Of a DNA stretch of 32,000 bases, positions 8,923 to 30,366 are shown one piece after another. Position 1 is the first letter of the stretch. The number at the start of each line of letters is the position of its first letter. The translations under genes were made by a program, and so were the position numbers. Location of the stretch: assembly GCF_000008625.1 (NCBI RefSeq), contig NC_000918.1, forward strand, positions 30,001 to 62,000, written 5' to 3'. This DNA comes from Aquifex aeolicus VF5. GTDB lineage: Bacteria; Aquificota; Aquificia; Aquificales; Aquificaceae. Under the pieces are notes generated by a model that saw only the letters and a program-made list of their open reading frames with translations, was not told the origin of the DNA and ran no database searches.

Positions 8923-9459
8923 TTACTTTTTAGGTCTGAAGGCTTTTACTTTATTCGGATCAGTGTCTATATATGCCCCGCCTATAAGGTCTATACAGTA
9001 GGGAATTGCAGGCATTACGGCGTCCAGGCATACTTTTATGGATTGAGGCTTTCCGGGAAGGTTTACTATTAAGCAACTCCCCCTTATACCCGCGGTTTGT
9101 CTTGAGAGTATGGCGGTGGGAACCTGTTTTAACGAAACCTGTCTCATAAGTTCTCCGAATCCTGGAAGCATTTTCTCGCATACCGCTTCCGTGGCTTCCG
9201 GCGTCACGTCTCTGGGAGCGGGACCCGTTCCGCCTGTTGTTAAAATCAGACTGCATCCCTTTTCGTCTGCAAGTTCTATTAAGGTTTTTTCTATCAAATC
9301 CCTTTCATCGGGAATTACCCTGTACTCAACCTCAAAGGGCGTTATTATCACGTCCTTAAGGTAATCTATAATAGCTTTACCGCTTATGTCTTCGTAAATA
9401 CCTTTGCTCGCCCTGTCGGAAATCGTCACAACTCCTATAACCGCCTTCTTTTCGCTCAT
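8923..9459 (-). CDS. mogA: molybdopterin adenylyltransferase MogA
   Basis: 178 aa that align along their length with E. coli MogA as I recall it (ISDRAS.G.Y.D, LTTGGTGPA.RDVTPEAT, PGFGE.MRQ.SL..VPTAILSRQ, NLPG.P.SIK). Confidence 0.9.
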   Translation of the reverse strand: MSEKKAVIGVVTISDRASKGIYEDISGKAIIDYLKDVIITPFEVEYRVIPDERDLIEKTLIELADEKGCSLILTTGGTGPAPRDVTPEATEAVCEKMLPGFGELMRQVSLKQVPTAILSRQTAGIRGSCLIVNLPGKPQSIKVCLDAVMPAIPYCIDLIGGAYIDTDPNKVKAFRPKK

Positions 9460-21802: not shown

Positions 21803-22405
21803 ATGAAGATACTCTCGATAGACACATCTTTTTCCTTTATAAACTTCAGCGTAATAGAAGAGGAAAAAGTAACTTTTTTACATTATTTAAAGAGTAATAA
21901 AAAAACCCTGGAACTTTTGCCGAAAATCTTTGAAGAACTGTGTATAAGACCTGAAAACTTTGACGCTTTTGCAGTTTCAGTAGGAGTGGGTTACTTAACC
22001 TCCCTGAGGATAGGCGTAACTTTTGTAAAAACCTGGGCCTATACCTTAGGAAAACCCGTAGTTTCCTACAAAAATTTAGAACTTCTTGCTAAAAAAACTC
22101 CCGTTCCTTTTCCCAAAATCCCATACCTTAAGGTGGGAAGTAACGTCTTTTATCAGATTTTTGAGGAAAGTTCTTCAAGCGAGGTTAAGGTTTTCAAAGG
22201 AGAAGAGTTAAGAGGCTACGGTATAAGCTTAAAAGAATTTGAAGATATAAAACTGGGAGAAAAGCAGTTCTTTCACGATATCTTCCCTTTTTCAGCATAC
22301 GGAGGAATTTACGCTTATGAATTTTTAAAAGAAAATCCCGAAGGTGAAAACGTTTTTGAAATAGAGCCTATATACGTAAAGCCACCCTATCACGTCAAAG
22401 ATTGA
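21803..22405 (+). CDS. tsaB: tRNA t6A37 biosynthesis protein TsaB (YeaZ) family
   Basis: MKILSIDTSFS..., FAVSVGVGYLTSLRIGVTFVKTWAYTLGKPVV.Y.NLELLA resembles the TsaB core (a divergent G.GS.TGLRIG). Confidence 0.7.
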   Translation: MKILSIDTSFSFINFSVIEEEKVTFLHYLKSNKKTLELLPKIFEELCIRPENFDAFAVSVGVGYLTSLRIGVTFVKTWAYTLGKPVVSYKNLELLAKKTPVPFPKIPYLKVGSNVFYQIFEESSSSEVKVFKGEELRGYGISLKEFEDIKLGEKQFFHDIFPFSAYGGIYAYEFLKENPEGENVFEIEPIYVKPPYHVKD

Positions 22406-23406
22406 GAGATTATCTTTTCAATTTTCTCGTTCAATTCCTCTAAATTCGGGTTTTCAAGAGGTTTAGAAAATATAAATCCCTGCACAAAGTCCGTTCCCAT
22501 GTAAAGCACCGTTTTTAACTCCTCCAAGGTCTCAACACCTTCTGAAACGACTTTTATGTTGTTCTCGTGGGCGAGCCTTATGAGGTAATTCACTATAACT
22601 TTCTTCATACTGTGCTTGTGAATATCCCTTATCAACTCCATGTCTATCTTTATGATGTCGGGTCCTAGTTCCGAAAGGTAGAATAGCCCGGAATATCCCG
22701 AACCTACGTCGTCAAGTGCAATCTTCACCCCTTCGCTCTTCAGAAAGGAAATCAGACTCTTTACAGCACTTATTTCAAGCTCTTCGTACTCTGTTAATTC
22801 CACTACTACCTGCCTTGGACTTACGTCGTGCATGTAAAGGGTAGAGATAAAATCTCCAAAGACCTTCAAGGGTTCCCTCAAGAACCGCGGGTGGAAGTTC
22901 AAGAAAAGCCACATGTCTTCTTTTAGAAACTTTCTGGCATTTTTTAAAGCCATGTACCTGCAGAAGTTTTCGGAAAATTCGGAGGTGCTCTTCCCCATGT
23001 TTATCAGGTCAACGATCTTTATAGGCGGTCTGCAGAGTGCTTCAAAAGCTTTAACTCTTTTTTCTTTAACGTCAACGATAGGATGAAACAGGGTTTTAGT
23101 GTCTATAAATATGTTCCCGAGGCTGTGGTATATGACCTTGTCTATTAAGTTCGTAACGGGTTCTGCCTTGGAAATCGCCTTCACTATATTTTCGCAATCG
23201 TTACCAACTTCCCCCTGATAAACTTTTAGGTCCTTTAATGTGTTTTCGTCCATTTCAGAAAGGAGGTAGAGAATTTCCTCGTCTTTTAAACCTGCGGTTA
23301 TTACGGCTGTGCCTGTGCGTCTTGTTTTTGCACCTGTGCTATGTAGACTTTCCTCAAACTCCCTTGCCTTCTCTTCATCTTTGAAAAGAAAAAGTATTTC
23401 TTCCAT
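22390..23406 (-). CDS. EAL-domain c-di-GMP phosphodiesterase with an uncharacterised ~100-aa N-terminal region
   Basis: FEALCRP, ELTEYE, DDVGSGYSGLFYLSELGPDIIKIDMELIRDI, VSEGVETLEEL, VQGFIFSKP. All the catalytic EAL motifs that I recall are present. Confidence 0.85.
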   Translation of the reverse strand: MEEILFLFKDEEKAREFEESLHSTGAKTRRTGTAVITAGLKDEEILYLLSEMDENTLKDLKVYQGEVGNDCENIVKAISKAEPVTNLIDKVIYHSLGNIFIDTKTLFHPIVDVKEKRVKAFEALCRPPIKIVDLINMGKSTSEFSENFCRYMALKNARKFLKEDMWLFLNFHPRFLREPLKVFGDFISTLYMHDVSPRQVVVELTEYEELEISAVKSLISFLKSEGVKIALDDVGSGYSGLFYLSELGPDIIKIDMELIRDIHKHSMKKVIVNYLIRLAHENNIKVVSEGVETLEELKTVLYMGTDFVQGFIFSKPLENPNLEELNEKIEKIISQSLT

Positions 23407-23422: not shown

Positions 23423-25133
<1,711 letters not shown>

Positions 25134-25134
25134 C

Positions 25135-25161
25135 GTTGCAACAGTGTTGCAACACTGCAAC
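25135..25161 (+). promoter_or_regulatory. candidate enhancer (UAS): GTTGCAAC palindromes
   Basis: GTTGCAAC at 25135-25142 and 25146-25153, 11 bp centre to centre. The perfect 14-bp palindrome AGTGTTGCAACACT spans 25143-25156. A third TGCAAC is at 25156-25161. The site lies about 55-70 bp upstream of the -24 element. Confidence 0.6.
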
Positions 25162-25203
25162 ACCTTCCTGAAACGCCCTTGTTGAAAATCAAAGGGAAAA
25201 GTT

Positions 25204-25219
25204 TGGCACGGAGTTTGCA
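25204..25219 (+). promoter_or_regulatory. sigma-54 (-24/-12) promoter TGGCACGGAGTTTGCA
   Basis: TTGGCACGGAGTTTGCAA (25203-25220) fits YTGGCACGrNNNTTGCW at every specified position. The spacing is GG (25205-06)-N10-GC (25217-18). It sits 37 nt before ATG 25256, with AAGGAGGTG at 25241-25249. Confidence 0.85.
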
Positions 25220-25255
25220 ATTAAAAAATGTGAAAACCAAAAGGAGGTGTGAAGC

Positions 25256-25597
25256 ATGGCAACACTTAGCAAGTTAAAGGAACTTATGTCAATACCCGGT
25301 GCAGTTGCCGCGGGTGAGTTTAGCGACGATGGAAGGCTTCTAGCCTACTACGGCGACATAGACGAGAAGTCCGCGGAGATAGCCGCCATGATGTGTGCAG
25401 CTAACAAGATGATGGGTAACATGCAGGCAAAGGGCTGGAGTGCTTACACGGGCAAGGACGGCTTTTACCCGGTTATAGGTTTTGCGGTTGCGGGAGGCAA
25501 GTACGCAGCCTGCATAATGGGAAACGTAGGTGTTTTCGTAGAGCTTGATAAAGCTGACTTTGACAAAATTTTTGAAACCCTTTCCAAGTTCATTTAA
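25256..25597 (+). CDS. roadblock/LC7-like small protein (DUF2173-like), paralog A
   Basis: 113 aa. The N-terminal L..L..IPGAVAAGEFSDDGRL pattern is the roadblock/MglB-type signature. Strong SD. Paralogous to the next gene. Confidence 0.7.
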   Translation: MATLSKLKELMSIPGAVAAGEFSDDGRLLAYYGDIDEKSAEIAAMMCAANKMMGNMQAKGWSAYTGKDGFYPVIGFAVAGGKYAACIMGNVGVFVELDKADFDKIFETLSKFI

Positions 25598-25611
25598 AAG
25601 GAGGTGGAGCG

Positions 25612-25947
25612 ATGGCAAACTTAGACAAACTTTTACAAATTAAGGGAGTTTTCGCAGCAGGCGAGTTCTCAGATGACGGAAAGCTCGTGGCTTACAAGGG
25701 TGATATAACCGAAGAAGAAGCCGCTATGGCTGCGGAAATGTGTGCAGCAAACAACGCCATGGCCAAGATGCAGGCTGATGGCTACACAGCCTTTTCCGGA
25801 AAAGAGTGGACTCCCCTTGTAGGATGGGCACTCACGGGACCAAAGTACTCGGTTTGCGTTGTTGGAAACGTAGGAGTCTTTGTAAAGAACGATGAAGTTT
25901 CCTTTAACGAAGTATTCAAAGCTTTGAGGGAGGAGGCGGGCAAGTAA
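25612..25947 (+). CDS. roadblock/LC7-like small protein (DUF2173-like), paralog B
   Basis: 111 aa. By hand alignment about 56 of 113 positions are identical to paralog A (AAGEFSDDG, MCAAN, MQA.G, GNVGVFV). SD AAGGAGGTGGAG upstream. Confidence 0.7.
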   Translation: MANLDKLLQIKGVFAAGEFSDDGKLVAYKGDITEEEAAMAAEMCAANNAMAKMQADGYTAFSGKEWTPLVGWALTGPKYSVCVVGNVGVFVKNDEVSFNEVFKALREEAGK

Positions 25948-25986
25948 TCTCTTTTCCTTTCTCTTTACCACTTTTTGGAGGATAGA

Positions 25987-26379
25987 ATGGCTTACAAGTT
26001 TCTTTCAGAAGACTGGATAAAGGCGTACGCAGAGGAGTGGAACAAAAACGAAAAGTTAATGAACGACCTCAAAAACTTCTCGGCGAGTATAAAGTACTAC
26101 GTGGAAGGTAAAGAAAATGACGCAGTGGAGCTGATAATTGAAAAGGGAAAGGCTGTTTCCGCAGGAAAGGCTGACCCTAATAAAAGGTACGACTTTGAAC
26201 TCTGGGCAAGTCTTGAGAACTGGAAAAAGCTCGCAACGGGGGAGATGGGCCCCAGAGCCGCGATGCTCACAAAGAGGTTAAAGTTTAAGGGTTCTATGAT
26301 TACAGCTATGAAGTACATGGGAGCCTTTGAAGAGAGCTTAAAGATGATGGGCAGAGTTCCGACGGTCTGGGATGTTTAA
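25987..26379 (+). CDS. SCP2 (sterol carrier protein 2) fold protein
   Basis: 130 aa from ATG 25987, with GGAGG 5 nt upstream (the track TTG start at 25975 is less likely). ...W..L..GEMGPRAAMLTKRLKFKGSMITAMKY resembles the SCP2 C-terminal signature. Confidence 0.7.
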   Translation: MAYKFLSEDWIKAYAEEWNKNEKLMNDLKNFSASIKYYVEGKENDAVELIIEKGKAVSAGKADPNKRYDFELWASLENWKKLATGEMGPRAAMLTKRLKFKGSMITAMKYMGAFEESLKMMGRVPTVWDV

Positions 26380-27964
26380 ATTTATAAACAAGGTGGATTT
26401 TAAAACATTTGACGAAATTTTTGACGGTGTTCTCGTAATAGATAAAAACAGGAGGATAGTTTTTGCTAACAAAAAGGCAAAAGAAATACTGGGGGAGGTA
26501 AAGGAGGGAGAGTCCTGCAGGGGGCTTTTTTCCATTTGTGAACACTGCCCTATGGAACTTGTTGAGGACTCAGAGCAAGGAGTTCAGGTTTACGACGTCC
26601 TGACGAAAAGGAAAAATCACGTGTGCCTCAGTATGAGTCCCCTCTTTGAGGGAGGGGAATTTACAGGAGTCCTTGAAGTTTTCAGGGATGTGAGCAAGGT
26701 AATCCACTACATGGAAGAGGTTAAAAGACAAAAGGAGTTTGTAGAAGTCGTACTTGACTCTATCGTGGAGGCTGTTCTCGTTCTGGACGAAAAAGGGAAC
26801 GTTATAAACCACAACGGGAACGCAAGCAAAGTTCTTTGTTCCAGGTTTGAAAGCATCACAGGAAAAAATCTGAAGGAAATAACTTCTCTGAGTCTGGAAG
26901 ACCTCCCGCCGGAAGGAGAAAGGGCGGACATTTACATAGAAACTCCCTGCGGTAGGCAAAAAGCCTCCGTTCTCCTCTCAAAACTGAAGCAGGGAAAGGG
27001 CTGGGTTCTTTCTCTATACATAGTTCCCGAGATATTCGCAGGTGAGGGAAACAAGTTAAAAATCGTTACAAAGAGTCCAAAGTTTCTGAAGGTTCTGGAA
27101 AAGGTAAAAACGATTTCCGAGATGAATGTAAACGTTTTGATCACTGGAGAGACGGGAACGGGAAAGAGCCTGCTCGCCAGATATATACACTACCTCTCTC
27201 CCAGGAGGGACAAGCCCTTCGTGAAGATAAACTGCGGTGCTATTCCTGAAAACTTACTTGAGGCGTAGCTCTTTGGCTACAACAAGGGAGCTTTTACAGG
27301 AGCAATTGCGAGTAAACCCGGAAAGGTAGAAATGGCAAACGGCGGAACACTTTTTCTGGATGAGATAGGAGAACTTCCGCTACACCTTCAGGTAAAGCTC
27401 CTCGGATTGATTCAGGACAAGGAGTTTGAAAGGATAGGAGATCTAAAACCGAGAAAGGCGGACGTTAGGATTATCGCGGCTACTAATAAAAACCTCAAAA
27501 AACTGGTAGAAGAAGGGAAATTCAGGGAGGACCTTTATTACAGGTTGAACGTCGTGAACGTGGAATTACCACCACTCAGGGAGAGGAAGGAGGATATACC
27601 TCACCTTGTGAGTTACTTCCTCGAGAAATTTTCAAAGATCCACGGGAAGAAGGTTAAGGGAGTATCTCCCGAAGCCATGAAACTGCTCTTAGAGTACGAT
27701 TATCCGGGAAACGTGAGGGAACTTGAAAACGCAATTGAACACGCTGTTGTGGTCTCAAGCACGAGTTTAATAGGACCCGACGACCTGCCTGAAGAGATAA
27801 GAATCGGAAGCAAAGTTAAGAAGAAGTTCAGGGAGAACGAGGAACTGGAGAAGATAAAAGAAGCCTTGGAAAGGGCTGGGGGAAACAAAAGCCTTGCGGC
27901 AAAGCTCTTGGGTATCCACAGGACCACTCTGTGGAGGAAGTTAAAGGAATACGGGCTTGCTTAG
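26372..27964 (+). pseudogene. sigma-54-dependent enhancer-binding protein (PAS-PAS-AAA+-Fis HTH) interrupted by one in-frame TAG (27266-27268)
   Basis: Walker A GETGTGKS, then [21 protein letters not shown] (canonical ESELFGH.KGAFTGA), Walker [27 protein letters not shown], and the [23 protein letters not shown]. The two track ORFs (26372-27268 and 27332-27964) are in the same frame. The start overlaps the SCP2 gene by 8 nt. Confidence 0.8.
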
Positions 27965-30366
27965 ACACTGCACGCCTCGCATTCCTCAATATCCATAGCC
28001 GAACGGCTCCTGAGGTAGTATATCGTCTTTAGTCCGAGTTCCCAGGCAAGTTCGTAGAGTCTGGAAAGCCTCGGCCCGTCTATGTTTTGAGGATCCACAA
28101 ATAGGTTCAGGCTCTGAGCCTGGTCTATCCACTTCTGCCTTACCGCCGCCGCCCTTATGGTCCACTCGTGGTCTATAGTGTAGGCGGTTTTGTAGTGCCA
28201 GTAGAACCTGTCTACCTCAGGAGGTACCTGAGGGAGTATCCCGGACATGTTCTCCTCTTTGTAGAACCTTGCGAATATCGGGTCTATTGAAGGAGTTGCC
28301 CCGAGTATCAGGGAAGTTGAACCAGTAGGCATAAGAGCGAGGAGGTACGCGTTCCTTATTCCATACTTCTTTATCTCCTCCGCGAGTTCCCTCCAAGGCA
28401 GGTTATTTCCGTTCTGTCTTGAGTTTTCCTCTATTTCCTCAACACTTCTTCCGAAGAGTATCCCCTTGCTCCAGTTTGAACCATCAAAGAGCTTGTACCT
28501 GCCCCTTTCCTTTGCAAGCTCCAGAGAACCTTTCAGTGCATAGAAGGCTATTAGTTCAAAGAGCTTGTCCGCAAACTTAAGGTGTTCTTCACTTTCCCAC
28601 TTTATCCCGTTCTTAACTAAACAGTAGTGGTAATTAGAAACTCCTATTCCTATGGCTCTGTAGCGCTTGTTAGTGTACTCAGCTTCGGGTATGGCGTAGA
28701 AGTTCATCTCTATTACGTTGTCAAGCATTCTCACAAGGAGTGGAAGAACTTCTTTTATCTCTTCTTCCGTATGAACTTTACCGAGGTTTACGGAACCGAG
28801 GTTGCAGACTGGAAGATCTCCCGCCTCCTTTTTGTAAGTTATCTCTCCGGTTTCTGGATCTAATACGGGCTTTTCGTGTTTAGAGGGAGACATTGTTTGT
28901 ACTATTTCATGGCATAAGTTACTACTGTAAACCATTCCCGTGTGTTTATTTGGATTCTTCCTGTTTGCCTCATCCCTGAAGAAGATGTAAGGTTCTCCCG
29001 TCTCAAAGGCTACCGTGAGAAGTCTCTTCCACAGTTCGAAGCTGTTTACCTTCTTCTTCGCATAAGAAGGTAGGTTTTCCTCAAGTTCAAGATACCACTT
29101 CTCAAATTCCTCTCCGTAGAAATCCTCAAGCCCTTTAGGTTCTAAGATATCCTGAGTTCCGTCTTCCTTTATGCCTACGTAGTAGTGACTTCCGGGAAGG
29201 GGTTTTACTTCCTTGTACTTTCCGTCGTAAATCTTTCTCGTTATGTACTGCCTTGCCCAATATGGGTCTATCAAGGTCCAGTCTTCCCTGTTTTTGAGTC
29301 TTTTCATAAAGAGGTCAGGGATTGATACTGCGGGGTGTATGTCGTGGGCTTTCTTTCTCTCGTCTCCAACGTTTGTCTTTACTTCCAGAAAGTCAAGTAT
29401 GTCCTTGTGCCAGATGTCCAGAGTGATGGAAGCGGAACCCTTCCTCATTCCGAGTTGGTCCACGTAGGTCATCGTGTCGTTTATGAGCTTTACTACGGGG
29501 ATTACTCCCGAAGAAGCTCCCTTGAACTTCCTTATGGGTGCTCCCGTTGCCCTTATCTTTCCGAGGTATACCCCGAGTCCCCCCGCAAACTTGGATATCA
29601 TTCCCGCTTTCTTTACGTTGTCAAATATGTCAAAGAGGTCATCGTCCACTGTAAGCACGAAGCAGGAGGAAAGTTGTGTGAAGGGTCTTCTCGCGTTCAT
29701 TAGGGTAGGCGTTGCAACGGTTACTTTGTGCTCAGAAAGGACGTCGTAAAATTTTTTCGCCCACTTTAGTCTTTCTTCCGGTTTTTCAGGAACTGCAAGT
29801 GTCATGGCAATGAGCATGTACATTTCTTGGGGAAGTTCTATTACTCTCCCCTCTTCGTCCCTTACCAGATATCTGTCGTAGAGTATCTTTATCCCTGTGT
29901 AGGTGAAGTAAAGGTCTCTTTCCGGCTTTATGTAGTTGGCGAGCTTATTGAAGTCCTCTTCGGAATAATTCTCAAGGAGGTACTCCCCGTATATTCCCTT
30001 CTCAACGTATTCTTTAACAAAACTGTAAAAGTTCTTTCTGTTATAGGGCTTGTACTTCCCGAGGTCGTCCCTAAGAGAATAACCTCTCAGGTGTGCAACG
30101 TCCTTGTAGAGATCGTAGAGAAGAAGTCTCGCCGCGGTGTACGTCCAGTCCGGCCTTTCGGCGGAAACTTTCTCCGCTGCAGTCTTTATTAAAAGCTGTT
30201 GTATTTCTTTCGTAGTTATGCCGTCCCTGAACTGTATCTGGGCATCAGCTTCGAGTTCTAAGGGGTCAACGTTCAGCCCCTCGCACGCAAACTTAATGGC
30301 TATCCTTATCTTGTTGATATCTAATTTTTCTTTCCTCCCGCTTCTCTTGATTACATACATTGTCAT
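27961..30366 (-). CDS. nrdA: ribonucleoside-diphosphate reductase class Ia, alpha subunit
   Basis: 801 aa. N-terminal ATP-cone [16 protein letters not shown], active-site SSNLCHEI, and a C-terminal Cys pair ECEACSV. No nrdB in the window. Confidence 0.93.

Follow-up and report, generated by a model that had tools for sequence, protein, structure and literature searches.

In a 32-kb stretch of the Aquifex aeolicus VF5 genome (hereinafter referred to as the window; coordinates count from its first letter), a gene cassette was identified that comprises a sigma-54 promoter, two paralogous DUF2173 genes, a gene for an SCP2-domain protein, and a gene for a bacterial enhancer-binding protein (bEBP). 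It is very probably a conserved sigma-54 cassette whose activator has been broken by a nonsense codon in VF5. The unit is real and widely conserved, and its regulatory architecture is that of a standard sigma-54/bEBP unit (promoter, upstream activator sites [UAS], and activator encoded in cis). In VF5, the activator is a nonsense pseudogene annotated as two genes, or a split gene. Averaged over its three layers (anatomy, sensor, and cargo), the reading that we favour is moderately probable.

An earlier sequence-only reading of this DNA had been aware of no characterised module of this kind, and the literature yielded no published characterisation; nothing relevant was found on aq_087-092 or COG4831. 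The cassette proteins were identical to AAC06465/O66498, AAC06466/O66499, aq_090/O66500, AAC06468/O66501, and AAC06459/O66502. Related loci were collected by scanning 185,579 species genomes with a DUF2173 profile and by homologue look-ups, which together gave 83 distinct loci. The features of the VF5 cassette are as follows.

25135 to 25163, plus strand: probable enhancer (UAS) with three TGCAAC(A) half-sites
25203 to 25220, plus strand: sigma-54 -24/-12 promoter TTGGCACGGAGTTTGCAA (GG at 25205-25206, GC at 25217-25218)
25241 to 25249, plus strand: strong Shine-Dalgarno (SD) sequence AAGGAGGTG of DUF2173-A, preceding ATG 25256
25256 to 25597, plus strand: DUF2173-A, 113 aa, predicted roadblock/LC7 fold (PF09941, E 5.5e-42; AAC06465 / O66498)
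25612 to 25947, plus strand: DUF2173-B, 111 aa, paralogue of A (PF09941, E 2.6e-43; AAC06466 / O66499)
25987 to 26379, plus strand: SCP2-domain protein, 130 aa (PF02036; aq_090 / O66500 / WP_164930561)
26372 to 27268, plus strand: N-terminal fragment of the activator (bEBP), 298 aa, with PAS1, PAS2, and the AAA+ Walker A motif (AAC06468 / O66501)
27266 to 27268, plus strand: nonsense codon TAG in place of the invariant Glu (GAG/GAA) of LLE[AS]-E-LFG
27269 to 27964, plus strand: in-frame continuation of the activator, with GAFTGA, the rest of AAA+, AAA_lid_14, and the Fis-type HTH_8

Interrupted activator gene and regulatory region in VF5

The activator gene starts at 26372, overlaps the SCP2 gene by 8 nt, and has no SD sequence of its own. 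GETGTGKS and GAFTGA motifs were present in its frame, together with PF25601 and PF02954, and the match to PF00158 was split over two open reading frames (ORFs; profile positions 1-68 and 92-167). The sequence-only reading had listed four tightly packed genes, the last encoding an activator with two PAS regions, a GAFTGA-type AAA+ core, and a helix-turn-helix (HTH). The start, the overlap, and all of these domains stood, but the intact fourth gene did not: TAG at 27266-27268, which had been overlooked, splits it into ORFs of 298 and 210 aa. The VF5 copy lacks the single uninterrupted frame encoding a complete AAA+ module by which a bEBP was judged.

The lost Glu lies just before the GAFTGA loop, in the motif context LLE[AS]ELFG..GAFTGA. 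The downstream annotated ORF begins at ATG 27332 (AAC06459 / O66502, 210 aa), and no in-frame ATG, GTG, or TTG was found between TAG and this codon. The GAFTGA codons (27287-27304) fall within that interval and are therefore outside any re-initiated product. Since the activator is truncated before GAFTGA, the cognate activator is expected to be dead, and the proposal that the module is functional and autoregulated in VF5 was not upheld. O66501 and O66502 are thus to be read as one disrupted gene.

Every bEBP motif in the fetched related loci had GAA or GAG at this codon, and TAG was found only in VF5 copies, one G-to-T step from the GAG used by relatives. The activator keeps all but the lost Glu of 109 positions that are near-invariant in 42 orthologues, including 72 of 72 downstream of TAG, and contains no frameshift. 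The lesion is presumably single and recent, judging from this conservation. Because TAG breaks the activator, the cassette is probably switched off in VF5, with promoter and cargo probably silent, and any absence of aq_090 operon expression in VF5 should not be regarded as typical of the phylum. The activator scored below every cutoff of the NCBIfam equivalogs, and it is therefore not NifA, NtrC, NorR, PspF, or the like. The gene for sigma-54, rpoN, does not lie in the window. The sigma-54 and NtrC1 proteins of A. aeolicus are standard structural models; VF5 has been a major source of such models, and one of its few bEBPs is a nonsense pseudogene.

The regulatory region agreed with the sequence-only reading in each of its elements. 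After the modB stop (25131-25133), a spacer of 122 bp without a terminator precedes DUF2173-A. The UAS is composed of GTTGCAAC at 25135-25142, the 14-bp palindrome AGTGTTGCAACACT at 25143-25156, and TGCAACA at 25156-25162, of which the first six letters (25156-25161) form the third TGCAAC; the centre of the UAS and the -24 GG downstream of it are about 56 bp apart. A further copy of GTTGCAAC lies at 25146-25153, and three copies were present in the window against 0.22 expected. For the promoter TTGGCACGGAGTTTGCAA, the exact pattern TGGCAC-N5-TTGCW had a single occurrence in the window, and none of 100 shuffles contained it. Its core TGGCACGGAGTTTGCA (25204-25219) has no mismatch to this pattern, and GG and GC are exactly 10 nt apart; looser versions of the element with two mismatches occurred at chance level. 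Transcription is predicted to start at about 25229-25231, sigma-54 transcripts being expected to begin some 11-12 nt beyond the GC, and the SD sequence AAGGAGGTG and ATG 25256 follow as had been described. A scan of positions 24400-28300 gave no sigma-70-like promoter or terminator above chance, and Rfam and tRNA scans of the cassette region detected no family and no tRNA.

Conservation of the cassette across lineages

The genes for DUF2173-A, DUF2173-B, and the SCP2 protein (hereinafter the triad) were found in that order in 73 of the 83 loci. An activator gene was adjacent in 64 of the 73, located downstream on the same strand in 50 and divergently upstream in 14; the other nine triad loci, without an adjacent activator, were mostly at contig ends. 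The hosts belonged to Aquificota, Beta- and Gammaproteobacteria, and Campylobacterota. The same-strand arrangement was found in Aquificaceae, Hydrogenothermaceae, Persephonella, Sulfurihydrogenibium, Hydrogenobaculum, and a few metagenome-assembled genomes (MAGs) with other labels, and the divergent one in Hydrogenophilales, Thiobacillus, Rhodocyclales, Burkholderiales, Pelomicrobium, Acidiferrobacteraceae, and one member of Aquificaceae.

The flanks varied by lineage (def, PBP2, folP, ribosomal genes, and others). Clustering of the neighbours of the 83 loci detected no outside gene conserved across lineages, def/SpoVG being lineage synteny only. Since no flanking gene is shared across lineages, the unit is self-contained. 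The comparison thus extends the synteny of the four genes from one species to several phyla with unrelated flanks, as expected of the self-contained sigma-54 module of promoter, upstream activator sites, cargo, and cis-encoded activator that had been proposed.

The promoter and the repeats are conserved as well, at fixed positions upstream of the related loci. Of 80 unique upstream regions, 65 had GG-N10-GC no more than 120 nt from the ATG, typically at a distance of 32-39 nt in Aquificota and 47-57 nt in Proteobacteria. TGCAAC arrays were found about 55-90 bp upstream of the -24 element, a position that is conserved, with 3-6 copies per 230 bp against about 0.1 estimated by chance (6-mer, both strands). 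Most Aquificaceae loci carry GTTGCA-N5-GTTGCAACA-TGCAACA at a distance from the -24 element similar to that in VF5, and the array of Proteobacteria is TGCAACG-N6/7-TGCAACA. Betaproteobacteria with a similar HTH (..RTTLWR..) also keep TGCAAC arrays in position, whereas the sensor-less activator of Hydrogenophilus has the recognition helix GRVTLWRR (HRTTLWRK elsewhere) and TTGAAACA/TGTTTCA repeats instead. HTH type and repeats thus co-vary, as expected if the repeats are the binding sites of the activator, and the HTH probably binds the conserved TGCAAC arrays.

Two accounts would change this anatomy. The module may be intact and functional in VF5 if TAG is a sequencing error, or is read through or suppressed, so that full-length activator is made; the perfect conservation of the rest of the gene without a frameshift, and the intact promoter, UAS, and cargo, suit such an account. 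However, the split was already present in the 1998 VF5 reference proteins O66501 (298 aa) and O66502 (210 aa). It recurs in Logan assemblies built from other read sets, which match the window exactly or almost exactly: TAG is in the DNA of two same-strain re-assemblies, and a third assembly shows the same 298- and 210-aa calls. Being present in the reference and in assemblies of independent read sets, it is not a one-off sequencing error. The codon is also a plain one-base change from the GAG of relatives, and the window contains no tRNA or suppressor gene and no Rfam recoding signal, so that we regard an intact module in VF5 as improbable. According to the other account, the repeats and the -24/-12 match have arisen by chance, and a housekeeping promoter drives the genes together with kdsA-modB. 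Some read-through is indeed likely across the 122-bp spacer, which has no terminator after modB, but promoter and repeats are kept in dozens of genomes with other upstream genes (def, PBP2, folP, and others), and none of the shuffled sequences contained the exact sigma-54 match. A fortuitous match is therefore extremely improbable.

Loss of the cassette seems to recur. In a Hydrogenothermaceae MAG, SKW169 (L003, equal to L050; 9977-12313), the whole cassette is in pseudogene pieces, and GG/GC has been lost while the TGCAAC repeats remain. Further decayed copies were found in L042, where the activator is frameshifted, and in L086, which is damaged. In two loci (L022:4712-5851 and L034:3054-4179), the main cassette is immediately preceded by a second, divergent A/B/SCP2 triad. 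This triad is more distant in sequence (phmmer E of about 1e-40; main copy, about 1e-67), lacks an activator, and shows no sigma-54 element up to 120 nt from its start.

Two observations on cassette content were made in addition. Candidatus Pampinifervens sinense carries two cassettes on one contig (L020 and L038). In 13 Aquificaceae loci (L012, L013, L019, L022-L027, L032-L034, L038; e.g. L013:8722-9000), the activator gene is followed directly, on its own strand, by a gene for a conserved protein of 91-112 aa with two Cys residues (..RCHDGEN.KFYCLPV..) and without a Pfam match, which may be a fifth member of the operon.

Predicted sensor and cargo proteins

The activator was modelled with tandem PAS domains, and PAS1 had a predicted local distance difference test score (pLDDT) of 86-92. 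Cys residues invariant in 49 Aquificota sequences were found in PAS1 (C49, C56, C59, C85) and PAS2 (C156, C193). The pocket of PAS domains is lined by short helices and the beta strand that follows them; the PAS1 model places C56 and C59 in short helices and C85 in the following beta strand. Tandem-PAS sensors (DosP, FixL, NifL, MmoS) were the best structural matches of this region. A homologue search by PAS1 alone returned one match and was of no use, and the 298-aa fragment was used instead.

The closest parallel is OrpR of Desulfovibrio vulgaris, a sigma-54 bEBP in which PAS residues C52, C61, and C65 bind a [4Fe-4S] cluster (PMC8359166). OrpR senses redox potential and negatively gates its AAA+ domain (PMC8359166). 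The cassette and the orp operons of D. vulgaris Hildenborough share a cis-encoded PAS-AAA+-HTH bEBP, an adjacent sigma-54 operon encoding small enigmatic proteins, and palindromic sites. In both activators, PAS Cys residues are located at about residues 50-65 (OrpR C52, C61, C65; cassette C49, C56, C59, with C85 in addition). In contrast, OrpR contains one PAS domain, against two in the cassette activator, its binding site is GGGCGYRTTTTGCGCCC and not TGCAAC repeats, and the Orp cargo is neither DUF2173 nor SCP2. On this analogy, we give an even chance to PAS1 being a Cys-based redox sensor with an iron-sulfur (Fe-S) or metal centre. The cassette activator may then be a second bEBP with an Fe-S PAS domain. 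The sequence-only reading had suggested a hydrophobic or redox signal; this remains a reasonable idea, and the PAS1 Cys cluster and the OrpR parallel give its redox version more substance.

For the cargo, the sequence-only reading had proposed two roadblock-type paralogues and an SCP2 protein of 130 aa, and both assignments were confirmed by the PF09941 matches, the predicted fold, and Pfam. DUF2173-A and DUF2173-B, the latter preceded by the SD sequence AAGGAGGTGGAG, were 50% identical to each other (E 5e-33), and each scored more than 140 bits to the DUF2173 Pfam family. Against Pfam Robl_LC7, DUF2173-A reached a sub-threshold 17 bits (gathering score 23), and DUF2173-B gave no match. A PDB sequence search with the DUF2173 profile returned chance phycoerythrin matches only, and a fold search was therefore needed. 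The AlphaFold2 (AF2) model of DUF2173-A, built from 77 sequences (pLDDT 95.8), had the order H-E-E-H-E-E-E-H of helices (H) and strands (E). Foldseek gave 74 PDB matches to this model at E <= 1e-3, and the best 50 of the 74 were all of the roadblock type (Roadblock/LC7, MglB, Ragulator, dynein). The top matches were Roadblock structures 3kye, 7f8m, and 9jue, MglB structures 6izw, 3t12, and 1j3w, and Ragulator MP1/p14, with template modelling (TM) scores of 0.67-0.82. By this model, the DUF2173 cargo belongs structurally to the roadblock superfamily.

With MglB, Roadblock/LC7, and Ragulator (LAMTOR), DUF2173 thus shares an alpha-beta-beta-alpha-beta-beta-beta(-alpha) fold at TM 0.67-0.82. The occurrence of the paralogues side by side and as tandem fusions also resembles MP1/p14 and suggests a hetero- or pseudo-dimer. 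The proteins differ in sequence (12-18% identity), and DUF2173 forms a separate small family below the Robl_LC7 threshold. Moreover, no partner GTPase was found for DUF2173, which is always linked to SCP2 and a sigma-54 activator. The family is rare, with 273 clusters (E <= 1e-3) among 1.84 billion representative proteins.

Longer DUF2173 proteins of about 130-134 aa also exist (P0111, encoded at L089:6001-6405, and P0210, P0214, P0240, P0248). P0111, at least, begins with a hydrophobic extension resembling a signal peptide, which suggests export of some family members. Lone DUF2173 genes (Sulfolobales, Igneacidithiobacillus, Chloroflexi, and others) were considered as a clue to function and set aside, their contexts being mutually unrelated.

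The SCP2 gene, with GGAGG preceding ATG 25987, encodes a protein that scored 59.4 bits against PF02036 (cutoff 21.3; profile positions 7-100 of 101). Its closest PDB sequences were TT1886/SCP2 of Thermus thermophilus (1wfr, 2cx7). With such stand-alone SCP2 proteins, including the UbiJ/UbiT class, it shares a length of about 130 aa and a single SCP2 domain. In contrast to this common layout, the similarity is weak (E of about 5e-4), no named NCBIfam SCP2 family covers the cassette protein, and an obligate genomic pairing with DUF2173 has not been described for the stand-alone proteins. NCBIfam contained no named family for any of the three cargo proteins.

Possible function of the cargo

The following mechanism is proposed. 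In intact copies, sigma-54 RNA polymerase would be positioned on the -24/-12 element (in VF5, GG 25205-25206 and GC 25217-25218), and the cassette's own bEBP would bind the TGCAAC array about 55-90 bp upstream (in VF5, 25135-25163) via its Fis-type HTH. The tandem-PAS sensor would gate the AAA+ motor, and PAS1 would most likely contain a redox centre (Fe-S or metal), as OrpR does. With the sensor in its permissive state, the activator would open the promoter, and DUF2173-A, DUF2173-B, and the SCP2 protein would be expressed. The activator itself would be made at a lower level by translational coupling, giving positive autoregulation. The cargo may form one soluble complex of a roadblock A/B heterodimer with the SCP2 protein, which would bind or hand over a hydrophobic ligand of respiratory or sulfur redox metabolism. 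In VF5, the single G-to-T change at 27266 (GAG to TAG) would cut the activator before the GAFTGA loop, and with the cognate activator dead, an otherwise intact promoter and cargo would probably be silent.

That the three cargo proteins act together is suggested by co-inheritance and gene fusions. A natural fusion of 380 aa (P0207) joins DUF2173-DUF2173-SCP2 by Pro-rich linkers, and several A-B tandem DUF2173 fusions exist. Roadblock proteins act as dimers, so that an A/B heterodimer is the natural reading. A link to respiratory or sulfur redox metabolism is hinted at by genes inserted in the cassette. In at least eight Aquificaceae loci, a gene for a monohaem cytochrome c (c-551/c-552 type, signal peptide, 97 aa) is located between DUF2173-B and SCP2; this protein presumably resembles Hydrogenobacter thermophilus cytochrome c-552 strongly. 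Another small haem-c protein is encoded after SCP2 in L038. In L046 (7158-8269) and L043 (7115-8034), SCP2 and the activator are separated by a split YeeE/YedE 'sulphur transport' (PF04143) gene pair. The host labels are largely those of sulfur- or hydrogen-oxidising chemolithoautotrophs. Taken together, a soluble A/B-SCP2 complex that carries a hydrophobic ligand and is linked to redox or sulfur metabolism is a tentative proposal, and we consider it possible but not probable.

The cytochrome c insertion was seen in L012, L014, L022-L027, and L033 (e.g. L027:6750-7040), in a Hydrogenobacter/Pampinifervens-like clade; in L012 the gene is truncated. Hydrogenophilales (L006, L066) have a related cytochrome c gene near the cassette. 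In L043, a small HupF/HypC-like OB protein follows the YeeE/YedE pair, and the L043 and L046 MAGs are labelled Thermodesulfovibrionales.

One mention of DUF2173 was found in the literature. In two Sulfolobaceae, a 'DUF2173' gene was induced 99-fold and 32-fold on elemental sulfur (mBio 2024, PMC11323534). The product is called a multi-pass membrane protein there (PMC11323534), which does not fit the soluble 110-aa family. As that gene is not matched to the family by any identifier, its induction is a weak lead only.

Several observations weigh against the reading that we favour. The Cys spacing is Cx6Cx2C...C in the cassette activator and Cx8Cx3C in OrpR. In Proteobacteria, the activators contain a single PAS-like domain that lacks these Cys residues, and one has no sensor domain at all; since the sensors differ between lineages, the signal input varies among the cassettes. 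Only a minority of loci contain the cytochrome c or YeeE insertions, which may be hitch-hikers, and the host taxonomy of sulfur- and hydrogen-oxidising thermophiles is confounded by hot-spring sampling. The stop is known from one strain only, all copies being identical or nearly identical to the window, and a search of metagenome contigs for the surroundings of the stop codon, its first base left free, gave no match and hence no natural A. aeolicus population that might tell if GAG is the ancestral codon. In addition, another VF5 activator could cross-activate the promoter, or low-level read-through of UAG could occur.

The cargo may alternatively act on its own activator. The roadblock pair, with or without SCP2, would then be a feedback regulator of the AAA+ activator, an anti-activator of the PspA/PspF or NifL/NifA type, with SCP2 as the sensor of a hydrophobic ligand and the ATPase gated by the roadblock dimer. 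Roadblock/MglB proteins, to which DUF2173-A is matched structurally here, are known regulators of NTPases. The proteobacterial activator gene and the triad diverge in the manner of pspF and pspABC, and the Hydrogenophilus activator (about 310-327 aa, AAA+ and HTH only) must receive its input in trans. The likeness to PspF-pspABCDE thus comprises a short activator divergent from its operon in the proteobacterial cassettes, sensor-less in Hydrogenophilus, but no PspA-like protein is encoded in the cassette, and most of its versions have PAS sensors, which are elaborate PAS-PAS sensors in Aquificota. The very strong SD sequences of the cargo, against none on the activator, suit abundant effectors rather than stoichiometric regulators. 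The second triad of L022 and L034 exists without activator or sigma-54 promoter, and an interaction between roadblock and AAA+ proteins is undocumented. We therefore regard feedback regulation as unlikely. Still less probable is a platform of the MglA/MglB type, in which the pair serves as a GTPase-activating protein or guanine nucleotide exchange factor for a Ras-like GTPase encoded elsewhere, with SCP2 as a passenger. The fold is like that of MglB and Ragulator, all partners of small GTPases. However, no GTPase was found in the window, and none is conserved beside any of the 83 loci, as the sequence-only reading had noted for this DNA. SCP2 is co-inherited in 73 of the 83 loci and even fused to the pair, and the Robl_LC7 score lies under the gathering cutoff (17 against 23 bits).

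An obligatory roadblock pair with SCP2 and without a GTPase has no characterised counterpart, and to our knowledge, roadblock-fold proteins tied to SCP2 instead of a GTPase have not been described. The soluble-complex reading can be made more specific, at the price of a low probability: A/B and SCP2 may be a soluble carrier complex of chemolithoautotrophs for a hydrophobic redox substrate, switched by an Fe-S PAS sigma-54 activator. The substrate would most attractively be zero-valent sulfur (S8, long polysulfanes) or a respiratory quinone. If this speculative account were true, a roadblock dimer would partner a lipid-transfer-fold protein and not a GTPase, and VF5, the laboratory model, would represent a natural knock-out in the regulation of this system. 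The cargo family is rare and tightly co-inherited in sulfur- and hydrogen-oxidising thermophiles, and the compact cassette, with its clear promoter, defined operator motif, and Cys-rich PAS, offers a tractable route to a new signal/response pair in Aquificota.

The genes on either side of the VF5 cassette are as follows.

24471 to 25133, plus strand: modB-like molybdate ABC permease (NCBIfam TIGR02141, 224 bits against a cutoff of 182.6)
27961 to 30366, minus strand: class II ribonucleotide reductase, convergent, forming the downstream boundary with a 4-nt overlap with the activator stop

The modB-like gene is upstream context; it lies outside the cassette in other genomes, and the flanks of orthologous loci differ. 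A connection of the cassette with modB or molybdenum was rejected, this adjacency being specific to VF5. No terminator-like structure was found between the activator and ribonucleotide reductase genes, of which the stop codons overlap at 27961-27964. The modB ATG (24471) overlaps the stop of kdsA, which ends at 24474. As modA and modC are not adjacent, modB is an orphan permease gene, co-transcribed with a lipopolysaccharide-precursor gene. A stand-alone EAL-domain protein of 338 aa, with an N-terminal region without a Pfam match, is encoded between tsaB and kdsA (22390-23406, minus strand), and a MoCF_biosynth (MogA/MoaB-like) gene is located at 8923-9459 of the window.

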